Below, piece by piece: positions 2,813 to 59,246 of a stretch of DNA of 64,000 nucleotides. Each line of letters starts with the position of its first letter. The stretch's first letter is position 1. The stretch comes from Acidimicrobiales bacterium. Lineage in GTDB: Bacteria; Actinomycetota; Acidimicrobiia; Acidimicrobiales; JBBRAZ01. The stretch is from positions 39,267 to 103,266 of the forward strand of contig JBBRAZ010000002.1 of the NCBI GenBank assembly GCA_038206295.1. Direction: 5' to 3'. A program made the translations under genes and the position numbers. The notes below the pieces were generated by a model. The model made no database searches and had not been told where the DNA came from. It worked only from the letters and a program-made list of their open reading frames with translations.

Positions 2813-3865
2813 TCAGCCCATCGGGTGGGCGGCGAAGAACGACCAGATGGTGTCGCTGGCGTCGATCTCGTCGGTCGCCGGGCCGAGGATCGCCGTGCTG
2901 GCGGCGGCGAACGCGCTGCCGGGCCACGTGTGGCCGGCGCCGTCGAGCACGTAGAGCTCGACGTCCGCGCCGCCCTCGCAGCCCCCGTAGGCCACGACCT
3001 CGACGTGCGTCGCCGCGGCGGTGCTGGACGGCTCGGCGTCGCACCCGTTGCGGCTCGCCCAGGTGGCCGCCGCGTCGCGCACGTCGCCGAACGGCAGCCC
3101 GTCGAACGCCCGGGTGCTGTCCTCGTCCCAGGTGAGGTCCTCGAGGCCCGGGTTCGGCGGCCCGGCGAAGGAGACCAGCTGGTCCTCGGTGCCGTGCATG
3201 GCGAGGACGGGCATCGGGCGGGCCGGGTCGCAGCCCGCCGGGTCCTGCAGGCCCGAGAGCGCGGCGACGGCCGCCACGCGGTCTGCGAGGCGGCACGCGG
3301 CGAGCGAGGTGAGGAACGCCCCGTTCGAGAAGCCGTCCACGTAGACGCGGTCTGGGTCGATGCAGACGCTCTGGCCCACGTCGTCGAGGACGTCCTCGAC
3401 GAAGGCGAGGTCGTCGGGCAGGTCGTCGTGCGGCACGGCGTTCCAGTACGGCATGTCGCCGGAGCCCTGCGGGGTGACCACCACGAAGCCCTCCCGGTCG
3501 GCGACCACCCCCATGTCGCTCATCGCCGCCTGGCCCGCCGCGCCGCTGAGGTAGCCGTGCAGCTCGATCACGAGCGGGACGGGCTCGCCGTCGTAGGTCG
3601 GCGGCACCCACCGCGAGTACCAGCGCTCGGCGTCGTCGCCGGCGACGTCCACCTGCTCGTGCGCCGAGCGCTCGCCCAGCTCGGCGGGGTCCGCGTCGCA
3701 GCCCGCGCCGCCGCCGGGTGCCGGCGCGGCCTCGGTGGTGGTCGGCGCGGTCGTGGCGCCGCCCGTCGAGGTCGACGGGGTGGCGACGTCGTCGCCGCCG
3801 CAGCTGGCGAGCAGCGCCAGGACCGCCAGCAGCGCGGCGATCGACGAGCGCCTCGTGCCGGTCAC
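2813..3865 (-). CDS. secreted esterase lipoprotein, PHB-depolymerase/LpqC-like alpha/beta hydrolase
   Basis: Signal peptide with lipobox (LLASCGG). Nucleophile elbow is GFSNGAF. There is an HGTED segment. Its start overlaps the stop of the upstream carotenoid oxygenase gene by 4 nt. Confidence 0.7.
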   Translation of the reverse strand: MTGTRRSSIAALLAVLALLASCGGDDVATPSTSTGGATTAPTTTEAAPAPGGGAGCDADPAELGERSAHEQVDVAGDDAERWYSRWVPPTYDGEPVPLVIELHGYLSGAAGQAAMSDMGVVADREGFVVVTPQGSGDMPYWNAVPHDDLPDDLAFVEDVLDDVGQSVCIDPDRVYVDGFSNGAFLTSLAACRLADRVAAVAALSGLQDPAGCDPARPMPVLAMHGTEDQLVSFAGPPNPGLEDLTWDEDSTRAFDGLPFGDVRDAAATWASRNGCDAEPSSTAAATHVEVVAYGGCEGGADVELYVLDGAGHTWPGSAFAAASTAILGPATDEIDASDTIWSFFAAHPMG

Positions 3866-5298: not shown

Positions 5299-5356
5299 GG
5301 TGTGGGTCCCGTCGTGTGGGGGGTGGAGGGGTCGTGCGCGGGTGGCGGGCGTCGGG

Positions 5357-7081: not shown

Positions 7082-7141
7082 GGTTCCCCCGGTGTGCGTG
7101 GCGCCGTCGTCGGCGAAGCCCGTCGGCTAGCCTGGTGAACA

Positions 7142-7999: not shown

Positions 8000-8041
8000 A
8001 CCTTCGCCGCCCGCACCACGACCGATCCACGAGGGGACCCC

Positions 8042-9256
8042 ATGGACACCGACGTCGAGCAGATGATCCGCACCCGCATCGAGGGCGAGAAGGCGCGCAC
8101 CGCTCCGCCGCCCGAGGCGATCCCCGTGCCGCTGATCCCGACGGAGCGCTACACCGACCCCGCGTTCTACGCGCTGGAGATGGAGCGCATCTTCCACCGC
8201 ACGTGGCTGTTCGCCGGCCACGAGAGCGAGTGGCCCGAGTCCGGCTCCTACCGGCAGTTCGACCGGTCCGGCTCGCCCCTGGTCGTGGTGCGCGGCACCG
8301 ACGGCGAGCTGCGCGCCTTCTACAACTCGTGCCGGCACCGCGGCGCCCCGGTGACCCGCGACGCGTGCGGCACCTCCAAGCGCCTCACCTGCCAGTACCA
8401 CTCGTGGTCGTACGACACCGAGGGCGTGCTGCGCGCGGTGCCCGACCAGCGCTCGTTCGCCGGCATCGACAAGGACGAGCTCGGGCTGGTGCCCGTGTCG
8501 TGCGAGACGTGGGAGGGCTGGGTGTTCGTGAACGAGGACGCCGACGCCGCGCCGCTCATCGACCAGCTCGGGGCGATCACGACGCTCATGGCCGACATCG
8601 ACGGCCCGTCGCTGCGCTCGGTGGAGCGCCGCGTGCACCGCGTCGAGGCCAACTGGAAGCTCATGGTCGACGCCTTCCTCGAGGTGTACCACATCCGCAC
8701 GATCCACCCGGAGAGCGCGGCGCTGCTCTACGACGACCAGTCGGTGACCGTCGCCATGCTGCCGGGCGGCAACAGCCGCCTCACCGTCGAGAAGCGCGAG
8801 GCGCTGCGCGACTTCGCCATGGTGCCCGAGCACCTCGACAACCCGTCGGTGCCGCTGCTGTGGCGCCAGACCTCCACGTCGTTCGGCATCTTCCCGAACC
8901 TGGTGGTGCCGATGGACTCCGGCGCGTTCACCGTCATGTGCATGTGGCCGGTCGACGAGCGCACCACCGATCTCGAGCTGTGCTGGTACGCGCCGGCGTG
9001 GGAGGGCGACGACGTCCCGCCGGAGTACGTCGGCCTGCTCGATCTCTACGACACCGTCATGGCGCAGGACCAGGCCAACATGGCCCCGATCCAGGCATCG
9101 ATCGAGTCGCCCGGTGCCCGGCCGTTCCAGCTCGGGTGGCACGAGCGGCTGCTCCACCACTTCCAGCGCGCCGTCGACCTCGCCATCGGTGAGGACCGGC
9201 TGCCGCCGGGGACCGCGGTGTCCGGGGAGCTCGACCGCTTCGTCGAGCCGATCTGA
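8042..9256 (+). CDS. aromatic ring-hydroxylating (Rieske non-heme iron) oxygenase, alpha subunit
   Basis: Rieske [2Fe-2S] motif CRHRG-x17-CQYHSW. The catalytic-domain region is EVYHIRTIHP. Confidence 0.9.
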   Translation: MDTDVEQMIRTRIEGEKARTAPPPEAIPVPLIPTERYTDPAFYALEMERIFHRTWLFAGHESEWPESGSYRQFDRSGSPLVVVRGTDGELRAFYNSCRHRGAPVTRDACGTSKRLTCQYHSWSYDTEGVLRAVPDQRSFAGIDKDELGLVPVSCETWEGWVFVNEDADAAPLIDQLGAITTLMADIDGPSLRSVERRVHRVEANWKLMVDAFLEVYHIRTIHPESAALLYDDQSVTVAMLPGGNSRLTVEKREALRDFAMVPEHLDNPSVPLLWRQTSTSFGIFPNLVVPMDSGAFTVMCMWPVDERTTDLELCWYAPAWEGDDVPPEYVGLLDLYDTVMAQDQANMAPIQASIESPGARPFQLGWHERLLHHFQRAVDLAIGEDRLPPGTAVSGELDRFVEPI

Positions 9257-14907: not shown

Positions 14908-16134
14908 TCACCTGGTCCACAAGGCGGAGATCGGCACGGCCCACACGTCCGGGCCGATGGGCAGGACGTGGCGTCCGGCGTAGAGCACCAGCCCGCGCCG
15001 GAGCCTCGACGCGTAGCGCGCTCGGAACGCGTCGATCCCCGCGGTTGCGCCGCGGGGCACCTCGCGGGTGCGCTTGACCTCGATCGCGACGAACCCGCCA
15101 TCTCGTTCGATCACGAGGTCGACCTCGTCGCGGTTGCGGTCTCGCCAGTGGAAGAGCCCGTCGACGCCGCCCAGCCACTCGATCTGCGTGGCGATCTCGT
15201 TCACCACGAACGACTCGAGCAGGGCCACGCGGCGATCGTCGCTGATCCCGCCGGGGTCGGGAGCGACGAGGATCGGATCGGCCATGTGCAGCTTGGGCAC
15301 CGCTCGCTCGGTGTCGGTGGCCTTGAGGCGCAGTCCGGGCAGCCGGCGGATGAGCCCCATCTCCTCGAGGAGGTCGAGGTAGCGCGCCGCCGTGCGGCGG
15401 TCGATGGCGAGGTCGGCGACCAGGTGCGAGATCACCAGCTCGTGGCCGACGACGCCGGCGATGCCGTCGAGGAGACGAACGAGGCGCCGATGGTCCACGA
15501 CGTGATCGGACTCGGCGAGGGTCTGCGGCACGATGCTGCGCAGGTAGTCGCGCCGCCACCTCCGCTGGTCGGCGTCGGACGTCACGAGGAGTGGGAAGCC
15601 GGTGGCGGCTGCCTCCTCGTCGTAGGTGGTCGCGGGGAGATCGGCGACCGCGAGCGTGCTCGGATCGCCCGACAGCAGCACCTCGAGGGTCGCGTCGGCG
15701 TGGCCGTGGCGCTCAGCGGCGTTGAGCGGACCCAGCTCGAAGCGGGTGAGGCGACCGGCGAGCGGGTGGGTGCCACCCATGGTGGGCAGGTCGACGCGGG
15801 TGGATCCCGTCAGGAGGAAGTGGCCGGGCCGTCCGTCCGCGTCGACCGCCTCCTTGATCGGCACGAGCACCTCGGGGACGAGCTGCGCCTCGTCGATGAT
15901 CGTGCCGAAGGGCAGGGACTCGATGAACAGGAGCGGCGAGGCGTGTGCAGCGGCGCGAACGTCGGGGTCGGCGAAGGTGACGGAGCGTTGGTAGGTGCCG
16001 TCGTCGGCGAGGCGCTGCACCAGCGTGGTCTTGCCGCAGGCCCGTGGCCCGATGAGCACCGTCACCGGCAGGCCACCCGAAGCGGCCCGGCGGATCGCGG
16101 GGAGCAGACCCCGGTCGATCCATGCTCGGCTCAT
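14908..16134 (-). CDS. AAA-type ATPase with DUF4143-like C-terminal domain
   Basis: Walker A is GPRACGKTT. Walker B-like is GTIIDEAQ. It is a paralog of the partial gene at 63638. The start is taken at MSRAW (16134); an in-frame GTG at 16158 is an alternative. Confidence 0.8.
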   Translation of the reverse strand: MSRAWIDRGLLPAIRRAASGGLPVTVLIGPRACGKTTLVQRLADDGTYQRSVTFADPDVRAAAHASPLLFIESLPFGTIIDEAQLVPEVLVPIKEAVDADGRPGHFLLTGSTRVDLPTMGGTHPLAGRLTRFELGPLNAAERHGHADATLEVLLSGDPSTLAVADLPATTYDEEAAATGFPLLVTSDADQRRWRRDYLRSIVPQTLAESDHVVDHRRLVRLLDGIAGVVGHELVISHLVADLAIDRRTAARYLDLLEEMGLIRRLPGLRLKATDTERAVPKLHMADPILVAPDPGGISDDRRVALLESFVVNEIATQIEWLGGVDGLFHWRDRNRDEVDLVIERDGGFVAIEVKRTREVPRGATAGIDAFRARYASRLRRGLVLYAGRHVLPIGPDVWAVPISALWTR

Positions 16135-16140
16135 GCCGGC

Positions 16141-16232
16141 AATGTACCAGACCGCCACGAGCGGATGTCATTTTCCGCCAGCCTCGAATGTACATTTCGG
16201 CCAGGATTGGATGTATATTTCAGCCAGCGAGC
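16141..16232. repeat. four tandem 23-bp direct repeats abutting the ATPase start codon
   Basis: Units start at 16141, 16164, 16187 and 16210. The units are AATGTACCAGACCGCCACGAGCG, GATGTCATTTTCCGCCAGCCTCG, AATGTACATTTCGGCCAGGATTG and GATGTATATTTCAGCCAGCGAGC. Confidence 0.85.
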
Positions 16233-18838: not shown

Positions 18839-19300
18839 TCAGGGGCGGGGGGTGCGCAGGCCGTCGCCGGCGCGCCAGGCCGCCCAGGCTCCCGTCGACC
18901 AGAGCGCCCACGCCACGAGGACGGGCTGGAACACCAGCCGCACGGCGCGCGCCGTGTCCGAGTCGAGCCCGAACGCGTCGTCGCCATCGACGAACTGCGA
19001 GATGTTGCCGGGGAAGACGGCCACGAAGAACGCGGCGACGACCCAGCCGACGAGCACCCGCTGGCGAGCGAGCAGGATCAGCGCGGCGCCCAGCACCAGC
19101 TCGACGACGCCTGACACCACGACGATGACGTCGGGGTCGAGCGGCATCCAGTCGGGCACCTGGGCCTGGAACTCGGTGCGAGACGAGAAGAGGCGCCCCC
19201 TGCCCGCGGCGAGCAGCGCGACGCCGAGCAGGATGCGCAGCGCGAGCTGCACGCGGCGCGTCGCGGTGCTCGACTCGGCCTCGGCTCCCGAGGCGCCCAT
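18839..19300 (-). CDS. DoxX-like small integral membrane protein
   Basis: It has four hydrophobic segments and a VFPGNISQ motif. Its ATG (19300-19298) overlaps the upstream stop by 1 nt (ATGA). Confidence 0.55.
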   Translation of the reverse strand: MGASGAEAESSTATRRVQLALRILLGVALLAAGRGRLFSSRTEFQAQVPDWMPLDPDVIVVVSGVVELVLGAALILLARQRVLVGWVVAAFFVAVFPGNISQFVDGDDAFGLDSDTARAVRLVFQPVLVAWALWSTGAWAAWRAGDGLRTPRP

Positions 19301-19962
19301 CAGGTGACCGGCTGCTTCCAGGCGTTGAGGTAGGTGACGTCGCGCACCGATCGGAGTGGCGCGGGGTGGAAGTCGTCGCCGGTGTAGTAGCCGACGGCCA
19401 GCAGGCAGACCTGGGTGACCGTGGAGGGGATGCCGAGGTGCTCGGCGACCTCGGCCTCGTGCTCGAGGTGGAACGTCGTCCACGCCGAGCCGATGCCTCG
19501 GGCGCGCGCCGCGAGCTGGAAGCTCCACACGCCGGGGAGCACCGAGCCGTAGTAGGCGGCGGCCTGGCCCTGCGAGCTCTCCGGTGGCGGACGATCGAGC
19601 CGCATCGCCAGCACGAGGGCGGGGACCTCGGCGAGGTGGTCGACGAGGAAGGCGGCCGAGTCGAGCACGCGGCGGCTCCGCTCGTCGGCGGCGATCTCGG
19701 CGTTGAACCTGAGGTAGGGGCGGCCGACGTCTGCGAAGCGCTCAGCGATGAACGCCTTCGTGTCGGGGTCGTCGATGATCAGCCACCGGTTGCGCTCGAG
19801 GTTGCCGCCCATCGGCGCGTGCCCGGCGAGCTCGATGCAGGCCAGCAGCTCGTCGTGGGGGACGGGTCGCTCGAGGTCGAGGCGCTTGCGCACCTGCTTG
19901 GTGGTGGTGAGCAGCCGATCGACCTCGTCGAGGTCGAAGCCGGTGCGCTCGTTGGTGGCCAT
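19300..19962 (-). CDS. nitroreductase family protein
   Basis: RKRLDLERPVPHDELLACIELAGHAPMGGNLERNRWLII is typical of FMN nitroreductases. The start is taken at MATNE; the ORF opens at 20016. Confidence 0.85.
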   Translation of the reverse strand: MATNERTGFDLDEVDRLLTTTKQVRKRLDLERPVPHDELLACIELAGHAPMGGNLERNRWLIIDDPDTKAFIAERFADVGRPYLRFNAEIAADERSRRVLDSAAFLVDHLAEVPALVLAMRLDRPPPESSQGQAAAYYGSVLPGVWSFQLAARARGIGSAWTTFHLEHEAEVAEHLGIPSTVTQVCLLAVGYYTGDDFHPAPLRSVRDVTYLNAWKQPVT

Positions 19963-20020
19963 CGCGGGCTCCCGTCGTCGTGTCGCTGGGGTGAGTCTGC
20001 CCGCGACCCTGGTCACGGCC

Positions 20021-20839
20021 TCAGTCGATGAGGGTGTTGGCGAAGATCTGCCACGCCAGGAGGCTCTTGGCGACGAGGCTCAGCACGATGTAGGTGCTCT
20101 CGCCGAACGCGTAGTCCGCCCATCGCCCCACCCGGCGGTACTGCAGCCACTGGTTGACGGCGAAGCAGTTGAACAGGACGAAGATCGTCCCGATGATCCC
20201 GTAGACGAAGCTCGGCGGGCCCTGGCCACCCGGCTGGCTCACGTTCACCCACAGGTAGGTGGCGATGGCGAGCCACGGCCCGATGCCCGCGATGCACCCG
20301 AACCAGAACGGCGCCCACCACGTCTTCGTGCGCTCGGGCGGGTTCGCCACCTCCATGATCCAGCCGAAGAGGATCATGGCCACGTTGGCGAACGCGATGG
20401 CGATCAGCGCGGCGAGGTCGGTCACGCCGGTGACCAGCGCGATGAGCACGATCATCAAGGTGGCCGACAGCGAGTACTCGACCCATCGGAACCGGTTGCG
20501 CCCGGCGCGCAGCTCCTCCGCGTAGCGGGGGAAGCCCACCGGCGACGCGATCAGCAGGTGGAAGAGCGCGGAGAGGAAGAGGAAGCCGGCGGTGGCCAGC
20601 CCGATCGGCACCCCGCCGAGGTCGTTGAGGTTGCCGTCGGCCAGCGGGGTGCCGGGCGGGCCGTTGAGCGCCAGGCTCGAGACCGAGAGCTCGAAGTCGT
20701 TCGACAGGGCGACCATGGCCAGCCCCGACACCAGGTGCACCGCGCCGGCGACGCTGTTGCGCATCCGGAGCTTGCGCAGCCGGTCGTCGCTGATGACGTG
20801 CTGGGAGTCGTCGCTCGTGTCGCTGCGCTGGTCGGCCAT
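20021..20839 (-). CDS. heliorhodopsin (retinal-binding 7-TM photoreceptor)
   Basis: Motifs shared with heliorhodopsin 48C12 as I recall it: ALSNDF, LNGPPGT, SALFH, FRWVEYSLSA, ILFGW, FWFGCIAGIGPW, FVYGII. The Schiff-base lysine context is YIVLSLVAKSLLAWQIF. Confidence 0.9.
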   Translation of the reverse strand: MADQRSDTSDDSQHVISDDRLRKLRMRNSVAGAVHLVSGLAMVALSNDFELSVSSLALNGPPGTPLADGNLNDLGGVPIGLATAGFLFLSALFHLLIASPVGFPRYAEELRAGRNRFRWVEYSLSATLMIVLIALVTGVTDLAALIAIAFANVAMILFGWIMEVANPPERTKTWWAPFWFGCIAGIGPWLAIATYLWVNVSQPGGQGPPSFVYGIIGTIFVLFNCFAVNQWLQYRRVGRWADYAFGESTYIVLSLVAKSLLAWQIFANTLID

Positions 20840-21016
20840 CTGGTGGTCCTCGTCGTCGCGGTCGGTCTCTGCGGGAGGCGACGAGGCTCAGTATGCCGGG
20901 GGGACTCGGCTGGTCCTACGGCTGGGTGGCTTGTGTGCGAGAAGGGCCGCTCCCGACACAGTGGTGCGCTCGCCGTTCGAGCGGCGCTGGCTCAGCAGCG
21001 CGTCACGATGGCCGCG

Positions 21017-21373
21017 TCACCCGAAGATCGAGATCGCCGTCATCAAGATGCCGAGCGAGGCGAACGTACCGACGCTGCACCTGTACAGCGCGGTGTTGAT
21101 GTCGGCGCGGACCGTTTCCTCGAACTTGTCGAAGCGGAGATCCACGCGAACCTCGAATGCGCGCAGGTCGGCATCGACGGTGTCGATGCGGTGGCCGAGG
21201 CGCTCCTCGGTGCTGCGCAGGTCGCCGCGGACTTCGGCGATGTCGGCTTTGGTGGCGACGTCGGCCCAGCCGACGGGTGGGAGGTGCTCGGCGAGCGTCA
21301 TCGCCTCATCCTCGCCGATCGCGGCGCGGAGCGCCTCGAGCATCGTGTGGCGGCTCGCTTCGGTGATGGCCAT
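21017..21373 (-). CDS. small tail-anchored coiled-coil membrane protein, paralog A (DUF1640-like)
   Basis: The RBS is AGAAGGA. The segment VATKADIAEVRGDL is present. It has one C-terminal TM helix (GTFASLGILMTAISIFG). Confidence 0.7.
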   Translation of the reverse strand: MAITEASRHTMLEALRAAIGEDEAMTLAEHLPPVGWADVATKADIAEVRGDLRSTEERLGHRIDTVDADLRAFEVRVDLRFDKFEETVRADINTALYRCSVGTFASLGILMTAISIFG

Positions 21374-21559: not shown

Positions 21560-24094
21560 TCAGCCTTCGATGCGCTCGGCGACGAGCTCGATGAGCTGCT
21601 GGAAGGTGGGGCGGTTGGTGGTGCGCATCGTGTCCTTGATGAGCCCGGGCTCGAAGCCCGTCCGCCAGCCCTCGGCCAGCCACGTCTCGGGGTCCTCGCT
21701 GCCGTGCTCCTCGGCCAGGTCCGCGGCCACCGTGTCGATGGCGGCCCACAGGTCCGCCTGGCAGTCCTCGATCACGCCGCCTCCGCAGTACTGGAGGTTG
21801 AACGGCCCGTCGACGTCCTCGCCGAGCAGGGTGCGCAGGTCCTTGTCGAGGATGCTGGCGCCGTTGGAGCCCCGCAGGCCGCGGCGCTCGTAGACGTTGG
21901 GGCTCTGCTCGCCGAAGACGGGCTCGATGGCGGCGAGCACCATCGGCTCCCACAGGGCCTCGACGATGGCGGGCCCGGCGTGGTCGAACGTGCCGTCGTC
22001 GTCCGCGTCCAGGGCGGGGGCGTCGTCGGCCACCCACTCGTCCAGCAGGTCGACGACGGCCTGGGCCTCGGCCGACGGCGCCTCGCCGCCGGCAAGCAGC
22101 TCGCTGACCACGGGCCACACCAGCGAGTTGGGCAGCTCGGTGGCGGAGCGGTTCATGACGCCCACCACCCCGGCGAGATCCGTCTGCTCGGGCCACTGGT
22201 CGAACAGCTCGACGCGGTGCACCGAGCCGAACGACTCGCCGTCGCCGTGCATGAACCCGGGAGCGGACTGGTTGTTCCAGTTGAGCAGCCGGTGGTCGTC
22301 GCCGGCGGTGCCGTGCGGGTGGTCGTCGCGCTCGAGGAAGCCCTGCCACTCGTAGTCGCCGGTGCCGAGCGTCGGCAGGCGGCGATCCAGACCCTCGGGT
22401 CGCACGGGCAGCTGGCCGGAGGAGAAGTAGGCGACGTCGCCGCGCCCCACCCAGCCCCAGTTGAACGTGAACCCGAACCGGTTGGCGGTGTCGTAGAACG
22501 CGTCCGCGGTGGCGGCCTCGCCCTCGGTCATGCGCTTGAGGGCGGCGAGGTTCATGGCGTCGCGCCCGAAGGTGGAGCGCTTGCGGGTGAGCGCTACGGG
22601 CCGGCCGTCGGAGGTGGCGGTGGCGATGACGGGGCCGTGCACCGAGGTGGGGTAGCTGACGGGCTTCCCATCCAGCGTGCCGGCGTCGAAGATCTCGAAC
22701 GGGCGGCACTCGCCCTCGAACTCGTAGTGGTCCGACTCGATCGTGGGCTCGGCGCCGTCGGGCTCGCAGAGGATCTCGGCGTACACGTCGCGCACGTCGT
22801 GGCCGGCGGAGGTGAGGCTCCAGGCGTAGTCCTGGGTGCGCCCGATGAGGATGTACATGGCGAGGCCGGGCACCGCAGCGCCCTGGGCCTCGATGCCGGG
22901 GCCCGACAGGTGGATCTGCTGGACGATCTCCGGGTAGAAGTAGCCGAGCTGCGGGCCGAGCACGCCGAGCGTCGTGCCGTTGACCGATGCTTCCTGGTCG
23001 ACGAGCAGCCAGTTGGAGGCGTGGCGGTCCGGCGGCTGCTGAGCGGCCTCGAAGCGGCCGTCGCCCGCGGCGCCGCCGCCGCCGGCGGTGGCGTCGAACG
23101 AGGTGATGCTGCCGGCGTCGATGGCGACCGATCCGGTGACCTCGCCGCCGGTCAGTGCCGGGTAGTCGAAGGTCTCGGTCAGGGTGGTGGGGGCCTCCGG
23201 GTCGCCGATGAGCATGACGTCCTCCCATGCCTCGCGGCCCGGGCCCTCGCCGAGGCCGCCCTGGAGGGTGGCGAGCAGCTCGGCGTTGTCGGCCTCCGAG
23301 CCGCCGCCGGCGCCGAAGATCGACCCGATGAACGACGTGGCGCCGATGATGTCGTTGACCGTGGCGGGCGCCTTGCCGGGGTCGTTCTCGGCCCAGTAGG
23401 CCGAGGCGCCATCGGCGTAGGCCTGGGCATCGGCGACGATCTCCTCGCCCTCGGGGCCGAGCTCCTCGACGAGCAGGTCGACCTGGTCGGTCAGCAGCTG
23501 CTCGGTGGCCTCGCTCGGGATGAACTGGCGCGCCGAGGTGACGAGGCCGAAGGCGTCGACGCCGGGGATGTCGGCCACCGCGGCGCGCGACGGGCCGCGG
23601 GCGAGGTCGAGCAGCAGGCCGCGGTCGCGCGCGGTCACCCAGCCGGCGCCGAAGGCGAGGTCCTCGCGGGTCTCGCCGGTGATGTGGGCGACGCCGTAGG
23701 AGTCATACAGGATCGTGACGCCGTCGCGGCCGGTGGGCTCCTCGTTGGTGTCGCCGACGGGGGCGAAGTCCTGCGGGAGGAAGTGCTCCTCGATGTCGGC
23801 GTCGGTGACCTCGCCGCGCAGTGGGGTGAGGCCGTCGTAGAGGGGGAGCTGGTCGAGCGAGTGCTCGGTGGTGGGGATGCCGCCGTAGTTGCCGGGCGGG
23901 AGGATGTAGAAGGAGCGGTCGACGGCGTCGGGGCTCTGGCCCGTGCCGGCGGTCGTGGTGGTGGCCTCGTCGGCCGACGGCGTGTCGTCGTCGGAGCACG
24001 CGGCGGCGAGCAGCGCCGCGACGGTGAGCAGGGCCGCAGCCCGGGCTCGCTTGGAGGCCCGAGTCGACGGGCGAGGTTCGAAGCTTCGGCGCAC
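21560..24094 (-). CDS. penicillin acylase (penicillin amidase / Ntn-hydrolase) family protein, secreted lipoprotein
   Basis: 844 aa. Lipobox is LLAAACSDD. The Ntn nucleophile context is HASNWLLV. Confidence 0.85.
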   Translation of the reverse strand: MRRSFEPRPSTRASKRARAAALLTVAALLAAACSDDDTPSADEATTTTAGTGQSPDAVDRSFYILPPGNYGGIPTTEHSLDQLPLYDGLTPLRGEVTDADIEEHFLPQDFAPVGDTNEEPTGRDGVTILYDSYGVAHITGETREDLAFGAGWVTARDRGLLLDLARGPSRAAVADIPGVDAFGLVTSARQFIPSEATEQLLTDQVDLLVEELGPEGEEIVADAQAYADGASAYWAENDPGKAPATVNDIIGATSFIGSIFGAGGGSEADNAELLATLQGGLGEGPGREAWEDVMLIGDPEAPTTLTETFDYPALTGGEVTGSVAIDAGSITSFDATAGGGGAAGDGRFEAAQQPPDRHASNWLLVDQEASVNGTTLGVLGPQLGYFYPEIVQQIHLSGPGIEAQGAAVPGLAMYILIGRTQDYAWSLTSAGHDVRDVYAEILCEPDGAEPTIESDHYEFEGECRPFEIFDAGTLDGKPVSYPTSVHGPVIATATSDGRPVALTRKRSTFGRDAMNLAALKRMTEGEAATADAFYDTANRFGFTFNWGWVGRGDVAYFSSGQLPVRPEGLDRRLPTLGTGDYEWQGFLERDDHPHGTAGDDHRLLNWNNQSAPGFMHGDGESFGSVHRVELFDQWPEQTDLAGVVGVMNRSATELPNSLVWPVVSELLAGGEAPSAEAQAVVDLLDEWVADDAPALDADDDGTFDHAGPAIVEALWEPMVLAAIEPVFGEQSPNVYERRGLRGSNGASILDKDLRTLLGEDVDGPFNLQYCGGGVIEDCQADLWAAIDTVAADLAEEHGSEDPETWLAEGWRTGFEPGLIKDTMRTTNRPTFQQLIELVAERIEG

Positions 24095-24177
24095 AGTTCC
24101 CCCTGCGGTCGGCCTACGCAGCCGAGGCTAACGGGGGGCGGTGCGGGACCGACGACAGGGCCGGCGGGTGGGGCAGC

Positions 24178-24612
24178 TCAGCCGAAGGCGGCAGCGACTG
24201 CCGTGCCGACCGCGACCGCCGTGAGGATCGTTCCGATCGTCTGGATGTGCAGCCGCTTCATCTCGTCTCGCAGCGATCCGTCGAGCGATGCCATCTCCGT
24301 GCGGAGCGAGCCGCTGAGCGTGCCCATCTCCGTGCGGAGCGAGCCCATCTCCTTGCCGAGCGAGCCGCCGAGCGTCGCCATCTCGGTGCGGAGATTGCCG
24401 CCGAGCGTGGCCATCTCGGTGCGCAGCTCGCCGCCGAGCGCGGCAACCTCGACGCGGACCTTGGCGAGCTCCGCCTCGAGATGGTCCTTCGTGACGAGCT
24501 CGTCCCGGTCGTGCGTTGGGAGCTCTGCCATGAGGGCCTCCGACACCTCCTCGCCGAAGACAGGCACGAGGTGCTGATGAACGATGGTGCGGTGCTGCTG
24601 GGACAGGGTCAT
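24178..24612 (-). CDS. small tail-anchored coiled-coil membrane protein, paralog B, with internal 11-aa repeats
   Basis: The start at MTLSQQHRT has the RBS GAAGGAA. The C-terminal TM helix is IGTILTAVAVGTAVAAAFG. Confidence 0.7.
   Translation of the reverse strand: MTLSQQHRTIVHQHLVPVFGEEVSEALMAELPTHDRDELVTKDHLEAELAKVRVEVAALGGELRTEMATLGGNLRTEMATLGGSLGKEMGSLRTEMGTLSGSLRTEMASLDGSLRDEMKRLHIQTIGTILTAVAVGTAVAAAFG
24259..24444. repeat. in-frame tandem repeat inside paralog B (five 33-nt units plus one 21-nt unit)
   Basis: On the + strand each unit starts with CATCTC, at 24259, 24292, 24325, 24346, 24379 and 24412. The repeat encodes LGGxLRTEMAT-type 11-mers. Confidence 0.85.
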
Positions 24613-24659
24613 CGTGATGGTTCCTTCGCCTGAGGTCAAGGGGTCGAGGGGAAGTGACG

Positions 24660-24728
24660 CCAACCGGCGGTTGTGCCCACCGTAGCAGGGGGGTGCGACG
24701 ATTCCGATCGTCACACGTGAGAAGTGTG
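24660..24728 (-). promoter_or_regulatory. conserved 69-nt upstream element, copy B
   Basis: It has the same length and end motifs as copies A and C. It ends 47 nt upstream of the start codon at 24612. Confidence 0.5.
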
Positions 24729-24811
24729 AAGGACCTGGGGGCGATCCACGGCACACCAGTCATGTTGCGAACAGTCGTTCCATATCTGAGCGACGGAGGG
24801 GTCGGCCCCTC

Positions 24812-25345
24812 TCACTCGGCGGTTGGGCCCTGGCGGGCGAGGATCCCCTCGAGGAGGAACGAGACTCGCGCCTCGATCGGCCGGGTTCCGTAGAAGCGCT
24901 CGACGAGGTCGAGTCCCTGGTCGACGTCCTCGATGCCGCAGAGGTCGGCGAGGAGCGCGATGTCGTCCTCGTCGCGAGCGACCCGACTCGCGAGGAGCTT
25001 CGTGGCGAGCATGTACTCCGGCGACGCGGCGGAGACGGTGAGGTTGTCGCCCTCGTAGACGACGCGACGCGGTCCAGGATCGTCTCCAGGGAGGAACCCC
25101 TTCACGCTGTCGTTCAGCCAGTCGTGGTCGAGATCGTCGTGGTGCTCCGCGACACGCTCGGCCGCGTCGCGGATCTCCGACGAAGGTCGCCAGATGCCAT
25201 CCACGTCTCGGGTGGCCGGACGAGCGTCGTAGGCGACTGCCATCGCGGCGCCGCCGACGATGAACAGGTCGCCGCGGACCCCGTGCACGGCCAGCTCGGA
25301 GTCGAGCTCGCCGAAGAGCTCGAGGATGCGCTCCTTGGTCAGCAC
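24812..25345 (-). CDS. nucleotidyltransferase-fold protein (DUF6036-like), putative toxin partner
   Basis: The NTase-type motif is FIVGGAAMAVAYDARPATRDVDGIW. It lies 8 nt downstream of the HTH gene. Confidence 0.6.
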   Translation of the reverse strand: MLTKERILELFGELDSELAVHGVRGDLFIVGGAAMAVAYDARPATRDVDGIWRPSSEIRDAAERVAEHHDDLDHDWLNDSVKGFLPGDDPGPRRVVYEGDNLTVSAASPEYMLATKLLASRVARDEDDIALLADLCGIEDVDQGLDLVERFYGTRPIEARVSFLLEGILARQGPTAE

Positions 25346-25352
25346 GCCGACC

Positions 25353-25937
25353 TCACACGTTCACCAGCGAGGCGCGGTGGATGTACACGCCGTGTCGCTG
25401 GAACGAGACCGGACTCCCTGCGTACTCCGACGCCCGCAGCGACCTCATGGGCGTCACCCACCACGCACGGTCGAGGAATCGATCCGGCTCGTCGACCCAG
25501 GCCGGTGCCGGGAGGCTGACGCGGACGGCGAGCCACTCCGCCAGCGCGGCGAGGAACGCGTCCCAGCGCCGATCGCCGGTGGGCGGCGGTGGGGTGAGGA
25601 GCGGCTCCACCCCCGGGGTTGCCGCACGGAGGAACCGCGAAGCCAGCTCCGCCGAGCGCCGGACGGGGGTTGCGATGTCGTCTGGGTCGGCGTCGACGTC
25701 GGCGCTGATGGCGCGCGCCAGTCCTGCGAGCGTGGACGGGTCGGTCACGCTGCGCACGTCCAGGCGCTCGCCGGTGGCTGCAACCAGGCGCGCCAGCATC
25801 GCGACGGTGGGCTCGAGGCGTCCCCGCTCGATCCGATGCACCGTGCTGGGCGAGACCTGCGCAGCGTGCGCCAGCTCCCTGATGGACAGGTGAGCGCTGG
25901 CTCGAGCCTCGATGAGGACCGCCGATGCAGTGGACAT
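25353..25937 (-). CDS. XRE-family helix-turn-helix protein, putative antitoxin/regulator
   Basis: The HTH is SIRELAHAAQVSPSTVHRIERGRLEPTVAMLARL. Only the last 194 codons of the 25353..26786 ORF look genuine. Confidence 0.7.
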   Translation of the reverse strand: MSTASAVLIEARASAHLSIRELAHAAQVSPSTVHRIERGRLEPTVAMLARLVAATGERLDVRSVTDPSTLAGLARAISADVDADPDDIATPVRRSAELASRFLRAATPGVEPLLTPPPPTGDRRWDAFLAALAEWLAVRVSLPAPAWVDEPDRFLDRAWWVTPMRSLRASEYAGSPVSFQRHGVYIHRASLVNV

Positions 25938-27368: not shown

Positions 27369-27437
27369 CCAACCAATGGTTGTGGATACCGTAGCGCCCC
27401 GACGCGGCGGATCAGACGCTTACAATCAATAAGTGTG
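27369..27437 (-). promoter_or_regulatory. conserved 69-nt upstream element, copy C (divergent interior, conserved ends)
   Basis: It has the same 69-nt length. CCAACCAATGGTTGTG...ACCGTAGC...AAGTGTG is conserved. It lies 47 nt from the start codon at 27321, in a divergent intergenic region. Confidence 0.45.
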
Positions 27438-27547
27438 GAGATGGATCGATGGTCGAGGTGCAGCCTCTCGCGGCGCACGGGAGGTGCAAGTTCCGGGGTT
27501 GCGATTCTTTCGAATTGAGATACCCTTCGCTCGAGGAGGTTGTCACC

Positions 27548-28012
27548 ATGGCGACGTCGGCAGATGAGCGGACGATCCTGCCCCCCACTGAGTCGCTCCA
27601 GGAGCTCCAGGCATTGCTCGCACGGCAGGACGCCGCGCCGACGACCACGCTCTCAGGACCGAACGGCGAGCACCTCGTGCTGCCCCCTGAGGTGTTCGAG
27701 GTGCTCCGAGGCATCGTGGAGGCCATGGCCAGCGGCCAGGCGGTCACCATCGCGCCGGTGCACCAGCGGCTGACGACCCAGGAGGCGGCGGATCTGCTCG
27801 GCATCAGCCGCCCGACGCTGGTCAAGCTCCTCGAGGCCGGCGAGATCCCATTCGAGCAGCCAGGGCGCCACCGACGGGTTCGCCTCGCCGACGTGCTCGC
27901 CTACCGAGACCGCGCATCGGAGATGCGGCGAGAGGCGCTCGACCGGATGGTGGCGATCGCTGACGAGGCAGATATGTACGAGCGCACCGCTGCGCCACGA
28001 CGCACGCGCTGA
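27548..28012 (+). CDS. excisionase-family HTH DNA-binding protein, putative antitoxin
   Basis: The RBS is GAGGAGG. The HTH is LTTQEAADLLGISRPTLVKLLEAGEIPF. Confidence 0.75.
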   Translation: MATSADERTILPPTESLQELQALLARQDAAPTTTLSGPNGEHLVLPPEVFEVLRGIVEAMASGQAVTIAPVHQRLTTQEAADLLGISRPTLVKLLEAGEIPFEQPGRHRRVRLADVLAYRDRASEMRREALDRMVAIADEADMYERTAAPRRTR

Positions 28013-28018
28013 CCATCG

Positions 28019-28582
28019 GTGCGCTACACGGTCGTGCTCGACACGTGCGTCCTCTATCCGGCGCACCTCCGCGACACGCTCCTCCGGCTGGCTGAGCGAG
28101 GCTTGTATCGAGCGCTGTGGTCGCCGGACATCCTCGTGGAGCTTCGCCGCAACCTCATCGACGTGGGCATCACCCCCGTCGACGTTGATCGCCTGATCGC
28201 GGAGATGGGCTCGGCATTCCCCCATGCGTCGGTCTCCGGGTACCGATCGCTGATCGATGGCCTCACGTGCGATCCGAAGGATCGCCATGTCCTTGCCGCA
28301 GCGGTTCGCGCCGATGCCTCGGCGATCATCACCATGAACACCTCGGACTTCCCACCCGCGAGCGTCGACCCGTTCGACATCGAGGTGACCGATCCCGACC
28401 ACTTCCTGCTCGACCAGCTCGACCTGGCGCCCGAATCGGTCGTCGATGAGCTGGCCCGCCAGGCGGCAGCGAACAAGCGCGAGCCGAAGAGCGTCGCAAC
28501 CTTGCTTGATGCGCTGGCACGAGCGGGGGCGCCGGCCTTTGCTGACGAGGTCCGACGCGGGCTCCAGCGCTCGACGCGCTGA
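28019..28582 (+). CDS. PIN-domain ribonuclease, putative toxin
   Basis: The N-terminal acidic motif is VVLDTCVLY. DRHVLAAAV and a distal D are also present. It starts 7 nt after the HTH gene. Confidence 0.8.
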   Translation: MRYTVVLDTCVLYPAHLRDTLLRLAERGLYRALWSPDILVELRRNLIDVGITPVDVDRLIAEMGSAFPHASVSGYRSLIDGLTCDPKDRHVLAAAVRADASAIITMNTSDFPPASVDPFDIEVTDPDHFLLDQLDLAPESVVDELARQAAANKREPKSVATLLDALARAGAPAFADEVRRGLQRSTR

Positions 28583-30506: not shown

Positions 30507-31328
30507 TTGATGACGCTTCACGTCGAGTCTAGAGAGCGCCCTCGCACGTGGGGTCGTGCCGATGGCCGGCCCAGTGCCATGGCCTTGCTTGACTACGCCA
30601 ACTTGGTGTCAGAGGAGTCCGAGCGGGACTCGCCGCTCATGAGCCACCTCATGATAGGGCTGGTACGGGCGATATCAGGGTTGGCCCCACAGATCGAACA
30701 CCTCGAGATTCGCGCCTACGGCGGATGGCTAAACGAAGGAATAATTACGTCGAGTGCCTCGAAGGCAATGCGGGCGCTTGAAGGCGCTAATCCATTCCCA
30801 GTTACCCATCCTGCAAGACGTCACGCATTGCTACACGGTGAAATACGCATCGTGAATACGCTGCTTAGCCTACCGCATGTGGAGTTTGGCGAGACATATC
30901 GAATGCGCAAGCGCCCTCCAAGGATCAGGCTAGCCAAGTCGCCAGTACCCGATCGATGCCTTGCAGATGCCACGTCATGCCCAGCTGCCGTTCTTAAGCG
31001 CTTCACTAAGTCCGCCAGTAAGACATGCCCGACACCCGACTGTTCCGTTACGTGCGGCGAAGCCTTCATGACCTTCGAACAGAAGATGGTCGATACCATG
31101 ATTGCCTGCGACCTCATCGAGGCTAGCCAATCGGCAGACCTAGCCCTCGTTGCTGTCCTGACGTGCGACACTGACTTCCTACCCCCACTGATCTACGCTT
31201 CGTCGACGGCTTCAGCTCAAGTTGCGGTAGTCACTCCCGATCGTTGTTGGCGTTCCGCCCACATCGAGATGCTTCAGCGAGCTGGAGTCAGACTTCTACC
31301 AGAAGAAGGTTCAAATGGCGACGCTTGA
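30507..31328 (+). CDS. NYN/LabA-like (PIN-fold) putative nuclease with Cys-cluster insertion
   Basis: The NYN-like acidic motifs are ALLDYANL, VDTMIACDLIE and VLTCDTDFLPPLI. The inserted Cys cluster is C-x6-C...C-x4-C-x3-C. Candidate starts are TTG 30507 and ATG 30510, after GAGGGCAGG. Confidence 0.6.
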   Translation: MMTLHVESRERPRTWGRADGRPSAMALLDYANLVSEESERDSPLMSHLMIGLVRAISGLAPQIEHLEIRAYGGWLNEGIITSSASKAMRALEGANPFPVTHPARRHALLHGEIRIVNTLLSLPHVEFGETYRMRKRPPRIRLAKSPVPDRCLADATSCPAAVLKRFTKSASKTCPTPDCSVTCGEAFMTFEQKMVDTMIACDLIEASQSADLALVAVLTCDTDFLPPLIYASSTASAQVAVVTPDRCWRSAHIEMLQRAGVRLLPEEGSNGDA

Positions 31329-33621
31329 TGACGTAAAGGCTGACCTCGCAGCATTTGCCGACGACGACGAAGACCTAATCATTGATACAAGTGGGCAAAT
31401 ACTATTTGTGCGCGGCGGCAGAGAGGTTTCATGTTTTTATGAGGAAGAGCCGGATGGACGACGAACCATTACCGTTGACAATCAGAGGATGTCGTACCGG
31501 GATTTTGTGGTCCGCTACCTTGCCCAACTTGATGTATTTGCGGAACGGCTAATCGCCAAGCGGTCGAGCCTCGGGCCGTTCGTTGATGGGCCGGCGGTTC
31601 TTGACTCACTCGTATCCGAGACGAGCCAAGGTTCTGCTGTCACACTTCTTGATGCTGAGTGCGCAAGGTCTTCGGGCTTCTCAGCCCGGGTCTGCTTCAT
31701 TACTGCAGATGCTGGACACGGTAAGACTGCCCTACTCAGACACTATCAGGACCAGTGTGCGCGTCGCTTCTTGACTGGGGAATCGCCGTTCCTCTTCTGG
31801 CATTTAGACCTGCAAGGCCGACAACTCCTACGGCTCTCAGAGGCACTGATGGGCGACCTCGGCGACTTGCGTGTTCAAGGGCTATGGATGCCCGCGGTGA
31901 TCCGCCTTCTCCAACACCGAGCGCTTGTACTGGCGATCGACGGATTCGACGAGCTCGCCGCTGAACAGGGCGGAACGGATGCGCTCGGTGCGCTGGCTAT
32001 GCTTGTCCAGCAGATGGATGGTAGCGGTACTATTGTTGCCGCCTCCCGTCGGACGTTCTTTGACACGGAGGACTATTTGAAGCGGTCAGCACTATTCCGC
32101 CGATCGCTGGTTGCCGCCTGCGAGTTCAATCAGATTGCCTTGGAGTCATGGGGATCGACTGAGGCGATCCAGTATCTGACCGAGTGCGTGGATGATGGCA
32201 ACAGATTTGACGATCCTGCTGCGATGTATCGAGAGATTGTTGATGCGCTGGGCGGTGACGTTGAACACCCAATGGTCACCAGACCGTTTCTCCTGACGCA
32301 CATTGCTCGAGGCCTGCTCCGTTATCAGGTGCCGGCGCGGGATTTCGTTAGGCCCATCGCAGATCCAATGGGCGGAGTCGCGGAAGTCGTGGGTGCATTC
32401 GTTGAGCGCGAAGTTGCCACGAAGTGGCGCTATAAGGACACTGGCGAGCCGTATCTCACTCGGGAGCAGCACATGCGGCTGCTGTCGGACGTTGCTGAGG
32501 AAATGTACCGAGCCCAGAAGGATCGGCTAGATCTGGAGATCGTCGAGACGCTAGCGATTATTCTCTTGGAGGAGTGGAGCGTAGAACCGAGCCGACGTCA
32601 GCAGATAATCGAAATGGTAAGGATGCACGTTCTATTGACCATTCCTTCGGATGGGGACGGGCGGAGCCGTAGCTTTGACCACCCCGAGTTTCGTGACTAC
32701 TTCATCGCTGTAGCACTTAAGGGACATCTCGATCGTGTCATAGATGGCGCGCCCTTTGGCGATCTTTCGAGGTACCTAAGTACAGCACATTTAAGCGACT
32801 CCACCGCTCGCTATGTGCGGCGGATGATTGACCTTGACGGGGCTCGTGCACAGCATCTCATTGGATCGCTAGCAAATGCAGTCGAATCCGAAGTCCGACC
32901 GACCTTCCTTCATGGAAATGTAGGAACATTGGTGGCGGCGATCCTTGACGGGCTTGAAAGCGAGGAGACGCTCCTGTTTGATGCCCCGGCGATCTTTACT
33001 GGCGTTGTTCTCGAGCGAACCCGACTAGCTAATGTCAATCTGTCGAGGTGTGTATTGGTTAACCCGAGCTTTCTAGGCGCCCGCTGGTTGGATGTGCGAT
33101 TCATCGACTGCGCGCTCGGTGATGTGACGCTTGACACGTCGTCCGAGTTTCGTGGGGTGTCGTTCGACTCCTGTGCGGTGGATGGCGTTCGGGTGGTACA
33201 GGGGGGGCAGGAGGTCGACCGCGAGTATGCGCCTTCCAGAATCCGTATGTTGCTGGAGAAGCATGGGATTTCGTGGTCGGACAGCGTAGACGCGTCGGAC
33301 GAGACTCCAGGCGTTCGTGATCCACATCCAGATAGCGATCTTTCGAAGCTCGCGCACCGGTTGTTGCGGCTCTTCAATCGGACAACAGTGGTCACCGATG
33401 AGATTATTCGAATCAGATTTCGGCATGACCACCAGAGGGTCTTGGATGAGCTTGTTCCGCTCCTTGTCGATTGTGGTGTGATCAAGGCTGGTACCTGGCG
33501 GGGACGAGGCTCACAAAGGATCTGGTCGCTGCAGTATCCGATCGATGTTGTGCTGGCAGCTGAGGATGATTCGGACATCGGCGATCTCGGAAGGTTCTGG
33601 CAACTTGCCGCAAGCGGCTAG
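31315..33621 (+). CDS. NACHT-type STAND NTPase with pentapeptide-repeat-like C-terminal region
   Basis: Walker A is ADAGHGKT. Walker B is LVLAIDGFDEL. AASRRTFF and FDHPEFRDYF are present. The C-terminal segment is RLANVNLSRCVLVNPSFLGARWLDVRFIDCALGDVTLD. It overlaps the upstream gene by 14 nt. Confidence 0.8.
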   Translation: MATLDDVKADLAAFADDDEDLIIDTSGQILFVRGGREVSCFYEEEPDGRRTITVDNQRMSYRDFVVRYLAQLDVFAERLIAKRSSLGPFVDGPAVLDSLVSETSQGSAVTLLDAECARSSGFSARVCFITADAGHGKTALLRHYQDQCARRFLTGESPFLFWHLDLQGRQLLRLSEALMGDLGDLRVQGLWMPAVIRLLQHRALVLAIDGFDELAAEQGGTDALGALAMLVQQMDGSGTIVAASRRTFFDTEDYLKRSALFRRSLVAACEFNQIALESWGSTEAIQYLTECVDDGNRFDDPAAMYREIVDALGGDVEHPMVTRPFLLTHIARGLLRYQVPARDFVRPIADPMGGVAEVVGAFVEREVATKWRYKDTGEPYLTREQHMRLLSDVAEEMYRAQKDRLDLEIVETLAIILLEEWSVEPSRRQQIIEMVRMHVLLTIPSDGDGRSRSFDHPEFRDYFIAVALKGHLDRVIDGAPFGDLSRYLSTAHLSDSTARYVRRMIDLDGARAQHLIGSLANAVESEVRPTFLHGNVGTLVAAILDGLESEETLLFDAPAIFTGVVLERTRLANVNLSRCVLVNPSFLGARWLDVRFIDCALGDVTLDTSSEFRGVSFDSCAVDGVRVVQGGQEVDREYAPSRIRMLLEKHGISWSDSVDASDETPGVRDPHPDSDLSKLAHRLLRLFNRTTVVTDEIIRIRFRHDHQRVLDELVPLLVDCGVIKAGTWRGRGSQRIWSLQYPIDVVLAAEDDSDIGDLGRFWQLAASG

Positions 33622-33718: not shown

Positions 33719-35005
33719 TTAGGCGTCGTCCGGGTGGCGGAGTGTGGTTGAGGGTCTTGTCCACGGTGTGTCTGATTGGTCGTGGACTGGCTCAACGGTG
33801 GTCGTCGAGTGGGCGGCGACCTTCTGCGCGATGGTGTCGAGCCGAGCCTCCATTCCCGCCGGCCGTTCGGTGAGGTCAAGGCGCCATGATTGGATGTGGA
33901 TGCCCTGGTGCCTGATCGTGACAGGTGGGTTATCAATGCTCTCAACGCTTGGGTGTCCGACGTAAATGAGTGCTGCGTTGGAGATGTTGTGCGCAATTGC
34001 GTATGCGAGTACCTGGACGTTGTGTTGTATGGAGCCAACGCCCTCGCCTAGGAGGACGTACTTCACATCTGCGACGAAGGCCACGTTCGTTCCGTAGGTG
34101 ACCGTGAGGTCCGGCTTGAGCATTAGTCGATGCTCGATGTCAAGGTATGTATGGGTATCGCCAGGACCCTCCACCGCAAGTTCCGGGTTGATCCGCCGAA
34201 GGCGATCCCTGAGCCCTTCCTCGACGAACACCTCGAAGAGGAAGTTCATGTCGACGAGGAACGAGTAGCCGCGGACACCTCCAGATGCCTCGTCGAAGGC
34301 GAGGTGGCGGAGCAGAATTGAGGCGAGGTGAATCGCGCGGCCGTAGTGCTGGTTCAGCCTCGTTGGCTCCCAGCGTTTGAGCGCGTCGAGGTTGGGCGCG
34401 ACGAGGCTGACGTCTTCGAGAAGCGCTAGATGTCTCAGCAGCCTGATTCGGGCCCGATCCGGAACGCCTGCGACTGCGAGGACGTGAACCACCGCCGCCT
34501 TGAGTGCCTGGTTCAGCATCTCGTCAGGCGTGAAGTCGTCGTAGCGAACCGCGATTGGCACAGGGATCGCTGGCCGCCGAAGTTGGGCAGCGAGATCGAT
34601 GCGGCCCCGCAAGGACACGAGGCGTTCCTCGCGCTGGACGTAGTCATGGAAGAGCCCGCCGCCGAGTGCTTCATCTAGCGATTCGACGAACATCAGTACG
34701 GCGCCTGCGAATAGGTCGTCAGAGACAGCGCTGGTTGCCTCGTCGCGGTACCACCACTCACGCGATTTGGTGACGCCGAGCATGTAGAAGACAGTCGACA
34801 AGTCCGCCTTCGGCCGAATTGACAGCTCGATGTCGCCGAACCGGATGGTGCCGACACGTGCCTGCGCCCTCACGCGCCAGCGGCCCGGCCGTTCGCCTGG
34901 CTCGATCTGGACTGGGCGCTGCGGGTGAGCGAGCAGGCTTGCCAGCTCGTTTGGCGCAAGCGCGAGCTCCTCAACCTCCCACTCGTTGATGGTGATTCGC
35001 CTCAC
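33719..35005 (-). CDS. mcrC: McrC-like restriction endonuclease subunit
   Basis: 428 aa. It has a PD-(D/E)xK-like motif (KPDLTV...FVADVKY). It overlaps the McrB-like gene by 4 nt. Confidence 0.8.
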   Translation of the reverse strand: MRRITINEWEVEELALAPNELASLLAHPQRPVQIEPGERPGRWRVRAQARVGTIRFGDIELSIRPKADLSTVFYMLGVTKSREWWYRDEATSAVSDDLFAGAVLMFVESLDEALGGGLFHDYVQREERLVSLRGRIDLAAQLRRPAIPVPIAVRYDDFTPDEMLNQALKAAVVHVLAVAGVPDRARIRLLRHLALLEDVSLVAPNLDALKRWEPTRLNQHYGRAIHLASILLRHLAFDEASGGVRGYSFLVDMNFLFEVFVEEGLRDRLRRINPELAVEGPGDTHTYLDIEHRLMLKPDLTVTYGTNVAFVADVKYVLLGEGVGSIQHNVQVLAYAIAHNISNAALIYVGHPSVESIDNPPVTIRHQGIHIQSWRLDLTERPAGMEARLDTIAQKVAAHSTTTVEPVHDQSDTPWTRPSTTLRHPDDA

Positions 35006-37893: not shown

Positions 37894-37961
37894 CTGTCGT
37901 TCTGCGACAGAAGGTCGATCAGCTCTCACCCGGGTACCTCGTCTCTTCCGACGCCATCGCC

Positions 37962-43782: not shown

Positions 43783-43941
43783 GCATGCACACTACGCGGC
43801 TGCTGTGACAGCCGCTCCAGAGGGCATACCCCCGTGCCACGATCTCGCCATGTGCATCGAGGTGAGCTGCGTCGACGGCCGTCGGCGTCCTGGTGAGGCC
43901 GGATTGAACGGAATATCGATCAATTGTCCGATAGATCGAAC

Positions 43942-59240: not shown

Positions 59241-59246
59241 CGGGGG

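Follow-up and report, generated by a model that had tools for sequence, protein, structure and literature searches.

The window, that is, the whole stretch of DNA that was analysed (64,000 nucleotides), very probably encodes an intact and canonical bacterial heliorhodopsin (HeR) of the 48C12 type. That the protein is a heliorhodopsin, and that its chromophore pocket is complete, is supported by two family profile models, a sequence search of solved structures, a residue-by-residue map, a predicted fold and a predicted membrane topology. The gene order in which the HeR gene is found, on the other hand, is private to the window genome among the loci examined, and the likeliest reading is that it arose by chance in a region that is prone to rearrangement.

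The gene lies on the minus strand and its immediate surroundings on the 5' side are as follows:

20021 to 20839, minus strand: HeR coding sequence of 272 amino acids, with an ATG at 20839 and a TGA stop at 20023-20021
20847 to 20851, minus strand: GAGGA ribosome-binding site, 7 nt 5' of the HeR ATG, read from the sequence
20840 to 21016, minus strand: intergenic region of 177 nt 5' of HeR, the presumed promoter region, read from the sequence

The ATG at 20839 is the start codon of the gene, and the GAGGA site supports this assignment. The GC content at third codon positions (GC3) is 0.98, a value typical of coding sequence in a genome with approximately 72% GC; it resembles that of the neighbouring genes, and the possibility that the gene was acquired horizontally, of which there is no sign, was discarded. 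Neither a sigma-70 consensus nor a terminator was found in the 177-nt upstream region, the 117 nt between 20900 and 21016 do not fold better than shuffled sequences (z=0.05), and a search of Rfam around the HeR gene returned no family.

The first-pass annotation described the reading frame as a heliorhodopsin of 272 amino acids, recognisable by four short motifs, that matches the prototype 48C12 along its length, and it proposed an alignment to heliorhodopsin references as a check. Each of these points is borne out. The Pfam model PF18761 (Heliorhodopsin) matches the protein with E=1.9e-95 and 319.2 bits, against a cut-off of 26.7, over positions 1-242 of its 242, and the NCBIfam equivalog NF038020 ('heliorhodopsin HeR') gives 299.2 bits, against a cut-off of 100, over profile positions 1-244 of 244, so that both profiles are covered completely and exceeded clearly in score. 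The Pfam model of the type 1 rhodopsins (Bac_rhodopsin) reaches only 17.6 bits with the same protein, which is under its cut-off of 24.6. When solved structures were searched by sequence, residues 21-271 of the window protein aligned to residues 9-254 of the 48C12 chain (E=2e-69, 50.4% identity), and each of the four quoted motifs was found, in register with the expected residues of 48C12.

The agreement extends to the level of individual residues. In a MAFFT alignment in which 26 positions of 48C12 were mapped, 25 are identical in the window HeR. The Schiff-base lysine of the seventh transmembrane helix, which had been located in the motif SLVAKS, is K258 (K241 in 48C12) and is invariant in the 77 relatives compared (77/77); the glutamate counterion of the third helix, located in FRWVEYS, is E121 (E107 in 48C12) and is likewise invariant in the relatives; and the two conserved histidines, placed in AVHLV and SALFH, are H35 and H94 (H23 and H80 in 48C12). 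The roles of these four residues in 48C12, and those of N16, Q26, S76, Y92, R104, S111, E149, E230, S237 and W246, have been described previously (PMC9726877). Apart from the lysine, the glutamate and the two histidines, 21 of the 22 further mapped positions are kept. The hydrogen-bond network formed by N16, S76, Y92, R104, S111, E149, E230, S237 and W246, with its three serines, is identical in its entirety. The same is true of W105, Y108, N138, M141, W173 and Q213, which were included in the map and which we take to be positions of the retinal pocket. Finally, the residues of the lateral fenestration are also present, as F178, C182, G185, F223, N224 and A227 in the window HeR, corresponding to F162, C166, G169, F206, N207 and A210 in 48C12.

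The sole exception among the 26 positions is Q26 of 48C12, which is replaced by Ser38 in the window HeR (codon at about 20726-20728, minus strand). Serine occupies this position in 71 of the 77 relatives, and threonine or glycine in the remainder; since the replacement is shared so widely, it represents a trait of the clade and not a defect of this particular protein. In 48C12, Q26 connects H23 to the extracellular residue W246 in a hydrogen-bond chain that has been proposed to take part in signalling (PMC9726877). The presence of serine, or of threonine or glycine, at this position therefore means that a large clade of Acidimicrobiia and other Actinomycetota would lack the link described for 48C12.

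The predicted structure leads to the same family. An AlphaFold2 (AF2) model built on an alignment of 48 sequences has a mean pLDDT of 90.2 and a pTM of 0.85, and it predicts seven long helices, the first two of which are joined by a long outer loop that forms a beta-hairpin (strands 50-57 and 70-78). When this model was compared with the PDB by means of Foldseek, the top match of the predicted structure was 48C12 (6su3_A; TM 0.87/0.92, rmsd 1.7 Å), followed by TaHeR (TM 0.81-0.82), while the type 1 rhodopsins were left far behind (TM of about 0.5-0.6, E of about 1e-4). Another way of looking at the model is to consider how the positive charges are distributed along the chain: with helix boundaries taken from the AF2 model, 13 lysines and arginines are counted in the N-terminus and the loops between helices 2-3, 4-5 and 6-7, as opposed to none in the loops 1-2, 3-4 and 5-6 and the C-terminus. 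According to the positive-inside rule, this difference (13 versus 0) predicts an inverted topology in which the N-terminus faces the inside of the cell. The orientation with the N-terminus inside is the feature that distinguishes the heliorhodopsin family.

Of the heliorhodopsins with known structure, 48C12 (from a freshwater actinobacterial fosmid; PDB 6SU3, 6SU4 and 6UH3) is the closest in sequence, and its three depositions are all found with E of about 2e-69. The 50.4% identity calculated by MAFFT covers the full solved chain, and the two proteins share not only the lysine, the glutamate and both histidines, but also the network and fenestration residues named above. Besides the replacement of Q26, the differences noted are the acidic N-terminal tail, which is 12 residues longer in the window HeR, and two short insertions, one in the loop of the beta-hairpin and the other in the 4-5 loop; the part of the protein that remains outside the match to 48C12 is this acidic tail of 20 residues. 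TaHeR, from a Thermoplasmatales archaeon (PDB 6IS6 and 7U55), belongs to the same family and has the same fold (E=2.9e-53, 40% identity), but it comes from an archaeal host and is farther from the window HeR than 48C12 is. The eukaryotic protein Cv06 is found in the same sequence search with E=1.5e-36.

By extrapolation from 48C12, at 50% identity, the window HeR would be expected to form a pigment, to undergo a photocycle and to transport no ions. If it operates in the manner of 48C12 and its relatives, all-trans-retinal would be bound at K258, light would drive the isomerisation of the retinal, and the proton of the Schiff base would pass to the water cluster of E121, H94 and H35 without leaving the protein. 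The slow photocycle, with a long-lived intermediate, would then alter the cytoplasmic face through the network N28-Y106-E247-R118-E163, and the altered face would modulate a partner protein rather than pump ions (PMC9726877, PMC9529153, PMC9769723, PMC11109279).

The notion that heliorhodopsins do not transport ions has an exception, given that one branch of the family transports protons, as does the viral protein V2HeR3 (PMC9448325), and a light-driven or light-gated proton transport by the window HeR has to be weighed for this reason. It is extremely unlikely. The window HeR groups with 48C12, at 50% identity, and 48C12 releases no proton to the bulk (PMC9726877). V2HeR3 shares the Pfam family with the window HeR but is assigned to another subfamily, and the fenestration motif that the window HeR possesses is reportedly missing in the viral subfamily that contains the transporters (preprint 10.1101/2025.11.27.691015).

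The same preprint, from 2025, makes a different proposal, according to which most heliorhodopsins carry a second, xanthophyll antenna (10.1101/2025.11.27.691015). Applied to the window, this would make the protein mainly a pigment of two chromophores, with an external xanthophyll bound at the lateral fenestration. The motif proposed for the fenestration and the carotenoid site consists of aromatic residues at positions 162 and 206, small residues at 166 and 210, G169 and N207 (10.1101/2025.11.27.691015), and all of its residues are present. This motif is nevertheless found in 91% of heliorhodopsins according to the same source, so that it does not distinguish the window HeR from the others; the preprint rests on docking and sequence motifs and reports no structure of a heliorhodopsin with bound carotenoid; and the 64-kb window contains no genes of carotenoid biosynthesis. 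As a description of what the protein mainly does, the proposal is considered improbable, and it is compatible with a sensory role, which it does not exclude.

The role favoured for the window HeR is the sensory one, for which there are several precedents. The first-pass annotation regarded the family as known, which is correct, and its physiological role as still open, which holds only in part, for roles have been shown for individual members (PMC9529153, PMC9769723, PMC11109279, PMC9448325). Heliorhodopsins have been found to regulate glutamine synthetase (AbHeR; PMC9529153), a photolyase (TfHeR; PMC9769723) and the ABC transporter OmrDE (OcHeR; PMC11109279). These proteins belong to the same family as the window HeR, whose cytoplasmic loops are likewise rich in arginine and lysine, and by analogy its mode of action is probably also a light-dependent regulation of another protein, exerted through contacts with the cytoplasmic loops. 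Unlike the neighbours of these three heliorhodopsins, the neighbours of the window HeR are neither known partners nor conserved.

With regard to its distribution, the protein is by no means rare. At least 7,980 homologues with E<=1e-20 were found among the 8,000 candidates that were scored in a search of a collection of 5.8 billion proteins. One of them (P0001) is 100% identical over the 272 amino acids and is public on an NCBI contig of 177 kb, and named relatives from Ilumatobacter and other Acidimicrobiales, at 66-73% identity, carry the annotation 'heliorhodopsin HeR'. Given that an identical protein is public and that NF038020 recognises it, the gene is already known and can be named automatically by standard pipelines, and its identification amounts to routine annotation in a well-characterised family. 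Nearly all of the nearest relatives come from Actinomycetota (Acidimicrobiia, Ilumatobacter, metagenome-assembled genomes of Thermoleophilia, and Intrasporangiaceae) and the GC content of the window is about 72%; the host is probably a high-GC member of the Actinomycetota, similar to the Acidimicrobiia, and the evidence is consistent with a monoderm organism.

The genes that surround HeR, and the spacer that separates it from the next gene, are the following:

19963 to 20020, minus strand: spacer of 58 nt from the HeR stop to the nitroreductase ATG, read from the sequence
19300 to 19962, minus strand: nitroreductase-family flavoprotein of 220 amino acids (Pfam PF00881, E=1.6e-17)
18839 to 19300, minus strand: DoxX-family small membrane protein of 153 amino acids (Pfam PF07681, 30.6 bits, cut-off 23.6)
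21017 to 21373, minus strand: protein of 118 amino acids with no family match, upstream of HeR after the 177 nt
21560 to 24127: penicillin-amidase-family gene
24178 to 24759, minus strand: second small protein with no significant family match, on the other side of the penicillin-amidase gene from the 118-residue protein

The nitroreductase gene has a GGGAG site 6 nt 5' of its ATG. Its product scores above the cut-off of none of the NCBIfam equivalogs (BluB 45.8 bits against 150, with FbiB also under its cut-off) and finds only weak nitroreductase matches in the PDB. To judge from its sequence, it is a widespread and uncharacterised flavoenzyme of actinobacteria. Relatives that are 74-84% identical occur in dozens of metagenome contigs from soil, sediment, freshwater and marine environments, and the enzyme is better conserved than HeR among their respective relatives. 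The 118-residue protein appears, by eye, to be helical with a hydrophobic C-terminal tail.

The arrangement of these genes invites the idea of an operon. The stop codon of the nitroreductase gene and the ATG of the DoxX gene overlap as TGATG, so that the two are probably translationally coupled. In the 58-nt spacer no terminator was detected, and its folding is no better than that of shuffled sequences (z=-0.47). The lack of a terminator in the spacer, together with the overlap of the two genes that follow, makes a transcript that spans HeR, the nitroreductase and DoxX plausible, and the co-transcription of the three genes is possible on this basis.

From here it could be proposed that the three genes, which lie on one strand, constitute a light-regulated redox operon specific to this lineage, in which HeR modulates one of the two products encoded downstream. 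Precedents exist in which a heliorhodopsin acts on what a neighbouring gene encodes (PMC9529153, PMC9769723, PMC11109279), and a theme of redox and stress functions has been proposed for the neighbours of heliorhodopsins (Bulzu et al., PMC8612252), with which the nitroreductase, DoxX, AhpC, ferritin, HSP20 and glyoxalase genes found near the window HeR and its relatives would loosely fit, as a theme of oxidative stress rather than as a sign of linkage. If such an operon existed, the redox module would add a fourth kind of partner to the three described for HeR (glutamine synthetase, photolyase and the ABC transporter). The comparison with other genomes, however, speaks against it.

The first comparison started from HeR and covered 80 loci in reference genomes whose heliorhodopsins are 62-73% identical to the window HeR. 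A tblastn search with six neighbours from the window (the nitroreductase, DoxX, the upstream 118-residue protein, the amidase and the next two genes) gave no matches within 10 kb of HeR in the 80 loci, and a phmmer search with the nitroreductase, DoxX and the 118-residue protein against the flanking reading frames within 5 kb, in the same 80 loci, retrieved only the window itself. The adjacency is thus missing in 80 of 80 related loci, and it is also missing in the three closest relatives that were looked up: next to the heliorhodopsin that is 83% identical (P0003) there are genes for an alpha-amylase, a glyoxalase, a Rieske oxygenase and AhpC, and next to two that are 73% identical there are a ferritin gene (P0007) and an HSP20 gene (P0008). 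The second comparison was the reverse of the first and started from the nitroreductase, in 80 metagenomic loci (L084-L163) with relatives 62-84% identical. HeR was found upstream of the nitroreductase in none of the 61 loci with enough flanking sequence, and DoxX was found downstream in none of 60. A module formed by the nitroreductase and DoxX independently of HeR was ruled out by this last result (0/60).

The clustering of the flanking reading frames around the 80 HeR loci gives a similar picture. HeR and its antisense shadow aside, the neighbour families each occur in at most 12 of the 80 loci. Some modest clusters do recur, among them those of an enoyl-CoA hydratase, a pyridine-nucleotide disulphide oxidoreductase, an enolase-superfamily enzyme, a short-chain dehydrogenase (SDR) and MatE, and these are syntenies at the level of the lineage. 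The largest apparent cluster of neighbours is in fact the antisense shadow itself, a long reading frame opposite HeR that occurs in 79 of the 81 clustered sequences (the 80 loci plus the window, in which it spans 20259-20525 on the plus strand). This shadow is a by-product of high GC content and codon bias and not a gene, although programs that search for open reading frames could miscall it.

In the literature, ten groups of recurrent HeR partners have been defined, namely glutamine synthetase (GS), NAD synthetase, photolyase, MerR, TerC, ABC transporter, SDR, alpha/beta hydrolase, DUF2177 and DUF2238 (Cho et al., 2024; PMC11109279). None of the ten adjoins the window HeR, the SDR and alpha/beta-hydrolase genes of the window being at least 16 kb away from it, and the nitroreductase and DoxX are outside these groups. 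Considering the absent conservation in both directions, the absence from the frequent neighbour groups and the unstable character of the region, a light-regulated redox operon is judged quite unlikely. In the same way, the two adjacent products, the nitroreductase-family protein and DoxX, are very unlikely to include the partner of HeR. More elaborate is the proposal that HeR was recruited beside the two genes and is co-transcribed with them as a new light-regulated membrane redox module, with a carotenoid-cleavage oxygenase of the window possibly supplying the retinal, and this is considered highly unlikely.

The reading of the adjacency as accidental is therefore maintained. The first-pass annotation had expected every new genomic context of a heliorhodopsin to be informative, and in this case the expectation finds little to sustain it, for the neighbours are not beside HeR in any relative examined, nor is HeR beside the relatives of its neighbours. 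A private gene order lends no support to any particular partner of HeR. The surveys published so far are in line with this result, since they find recurrent operon partners for only a minority of heliorhodopsin genes.

The region as a whole has features that point to a flexible part of the genome. An island of 14 kb with low GC content (57-66%, compared with about 72%), at about 30.4-44.6 kb of the window, contains a series of defence genes, and further genes of interest lie around it:

31315 to 33621: STAND/NACHT NTPase
33719 to 35005: McrC
35002 to 38202: McrB-like ATPase of the AAA_5 family
37962 to 40667: methylase of a type III restriction-modification (R-M) system
40684 to 43782: Res helicase, partner of the type III R-M methylase
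43924 to 44556: nucleotidyltransferase
27395 to 28582, 47542 to 48642, 60957 to 61400, 24812 to 25360 and 14908 to 16167: genes resembling toxin-antitoxin systems or mobile regions, placed outside the island

The presence of the defence island and of the toxin-antitoxin-like genes nearby implies that HeR is located in a flexible, rearrangement-prone region. The genes of the last line are scattered and include a pair of HTH_17 and PIN_3, AbiEii, PIN, a DUF6036 nucleotidyltransferase and a DUF4143 ATPase. No tRNA genes were found in the 64-kb window.

A heliorhodopsin requires retinal in order to form a pigment, and the genes of the window that could bear on its supply are found at some distance from HeR:

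3862 to 5442, minus strand: carotenoid-cleavage oxygenase of the RPE65 family, with a probable ATG near 5298 (Pfam PF03055, E=4.7e-129)
5357 to 7126, minus strand: second RPE65-family copy, in tandem and extremely divergent (Pfam 1.3e-18)
8000 to 9256: Rieske ring-hydroxylating oxygenase, beside the RPE65-family pair
56842 to 58698, minus strand: flavoprotein with the amine-oxidase fold and a TAT signal, similar to CrtI/HpnE only in its FAD-binding N-terminus

The first oxygenase is 14.6 kb from HeR and is intact, and its translation contains the histidine-ligand motifs HMFDGDG, AHPR, MHDF and GFHANW. Its best matches in the PDB are a carotenoid 9,10-dioxygenase (4.9e-70) and the apocarotenoid-15,15'-oxygenase of Synechocystis (1.1e-55), and it is closer to the former, to the plant NCED and to the retinal-forming Synechocystis enzyme than to the lignostilbene dioxygenases; it is under the cut-off of every NCBIfam equivalog. 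The divergent second copy finds no match in the PDB or NCBIfam. The first oxygenase may be considered a candidate source of retinal for HeR, as a weak lead. A catabolic role directed to aromatic compounds or apocarotenoids is equally likely, because no more than 1-2 of the 80 HeR loci have such an oxygenase nearby and because the Rieske oxygenase is beside it.

A search for blh or crt genes in the 64-kb window found none. The flavoprotein at 56842-58698 was examined as a possible CrtI desaturase and ruled out, since its score of 39.7 bits falls far short of the cut-off, which is 238. It lies among genes for secreted esterases, lipases and glycoside hydrolases, which extend from 53384 to 63390.
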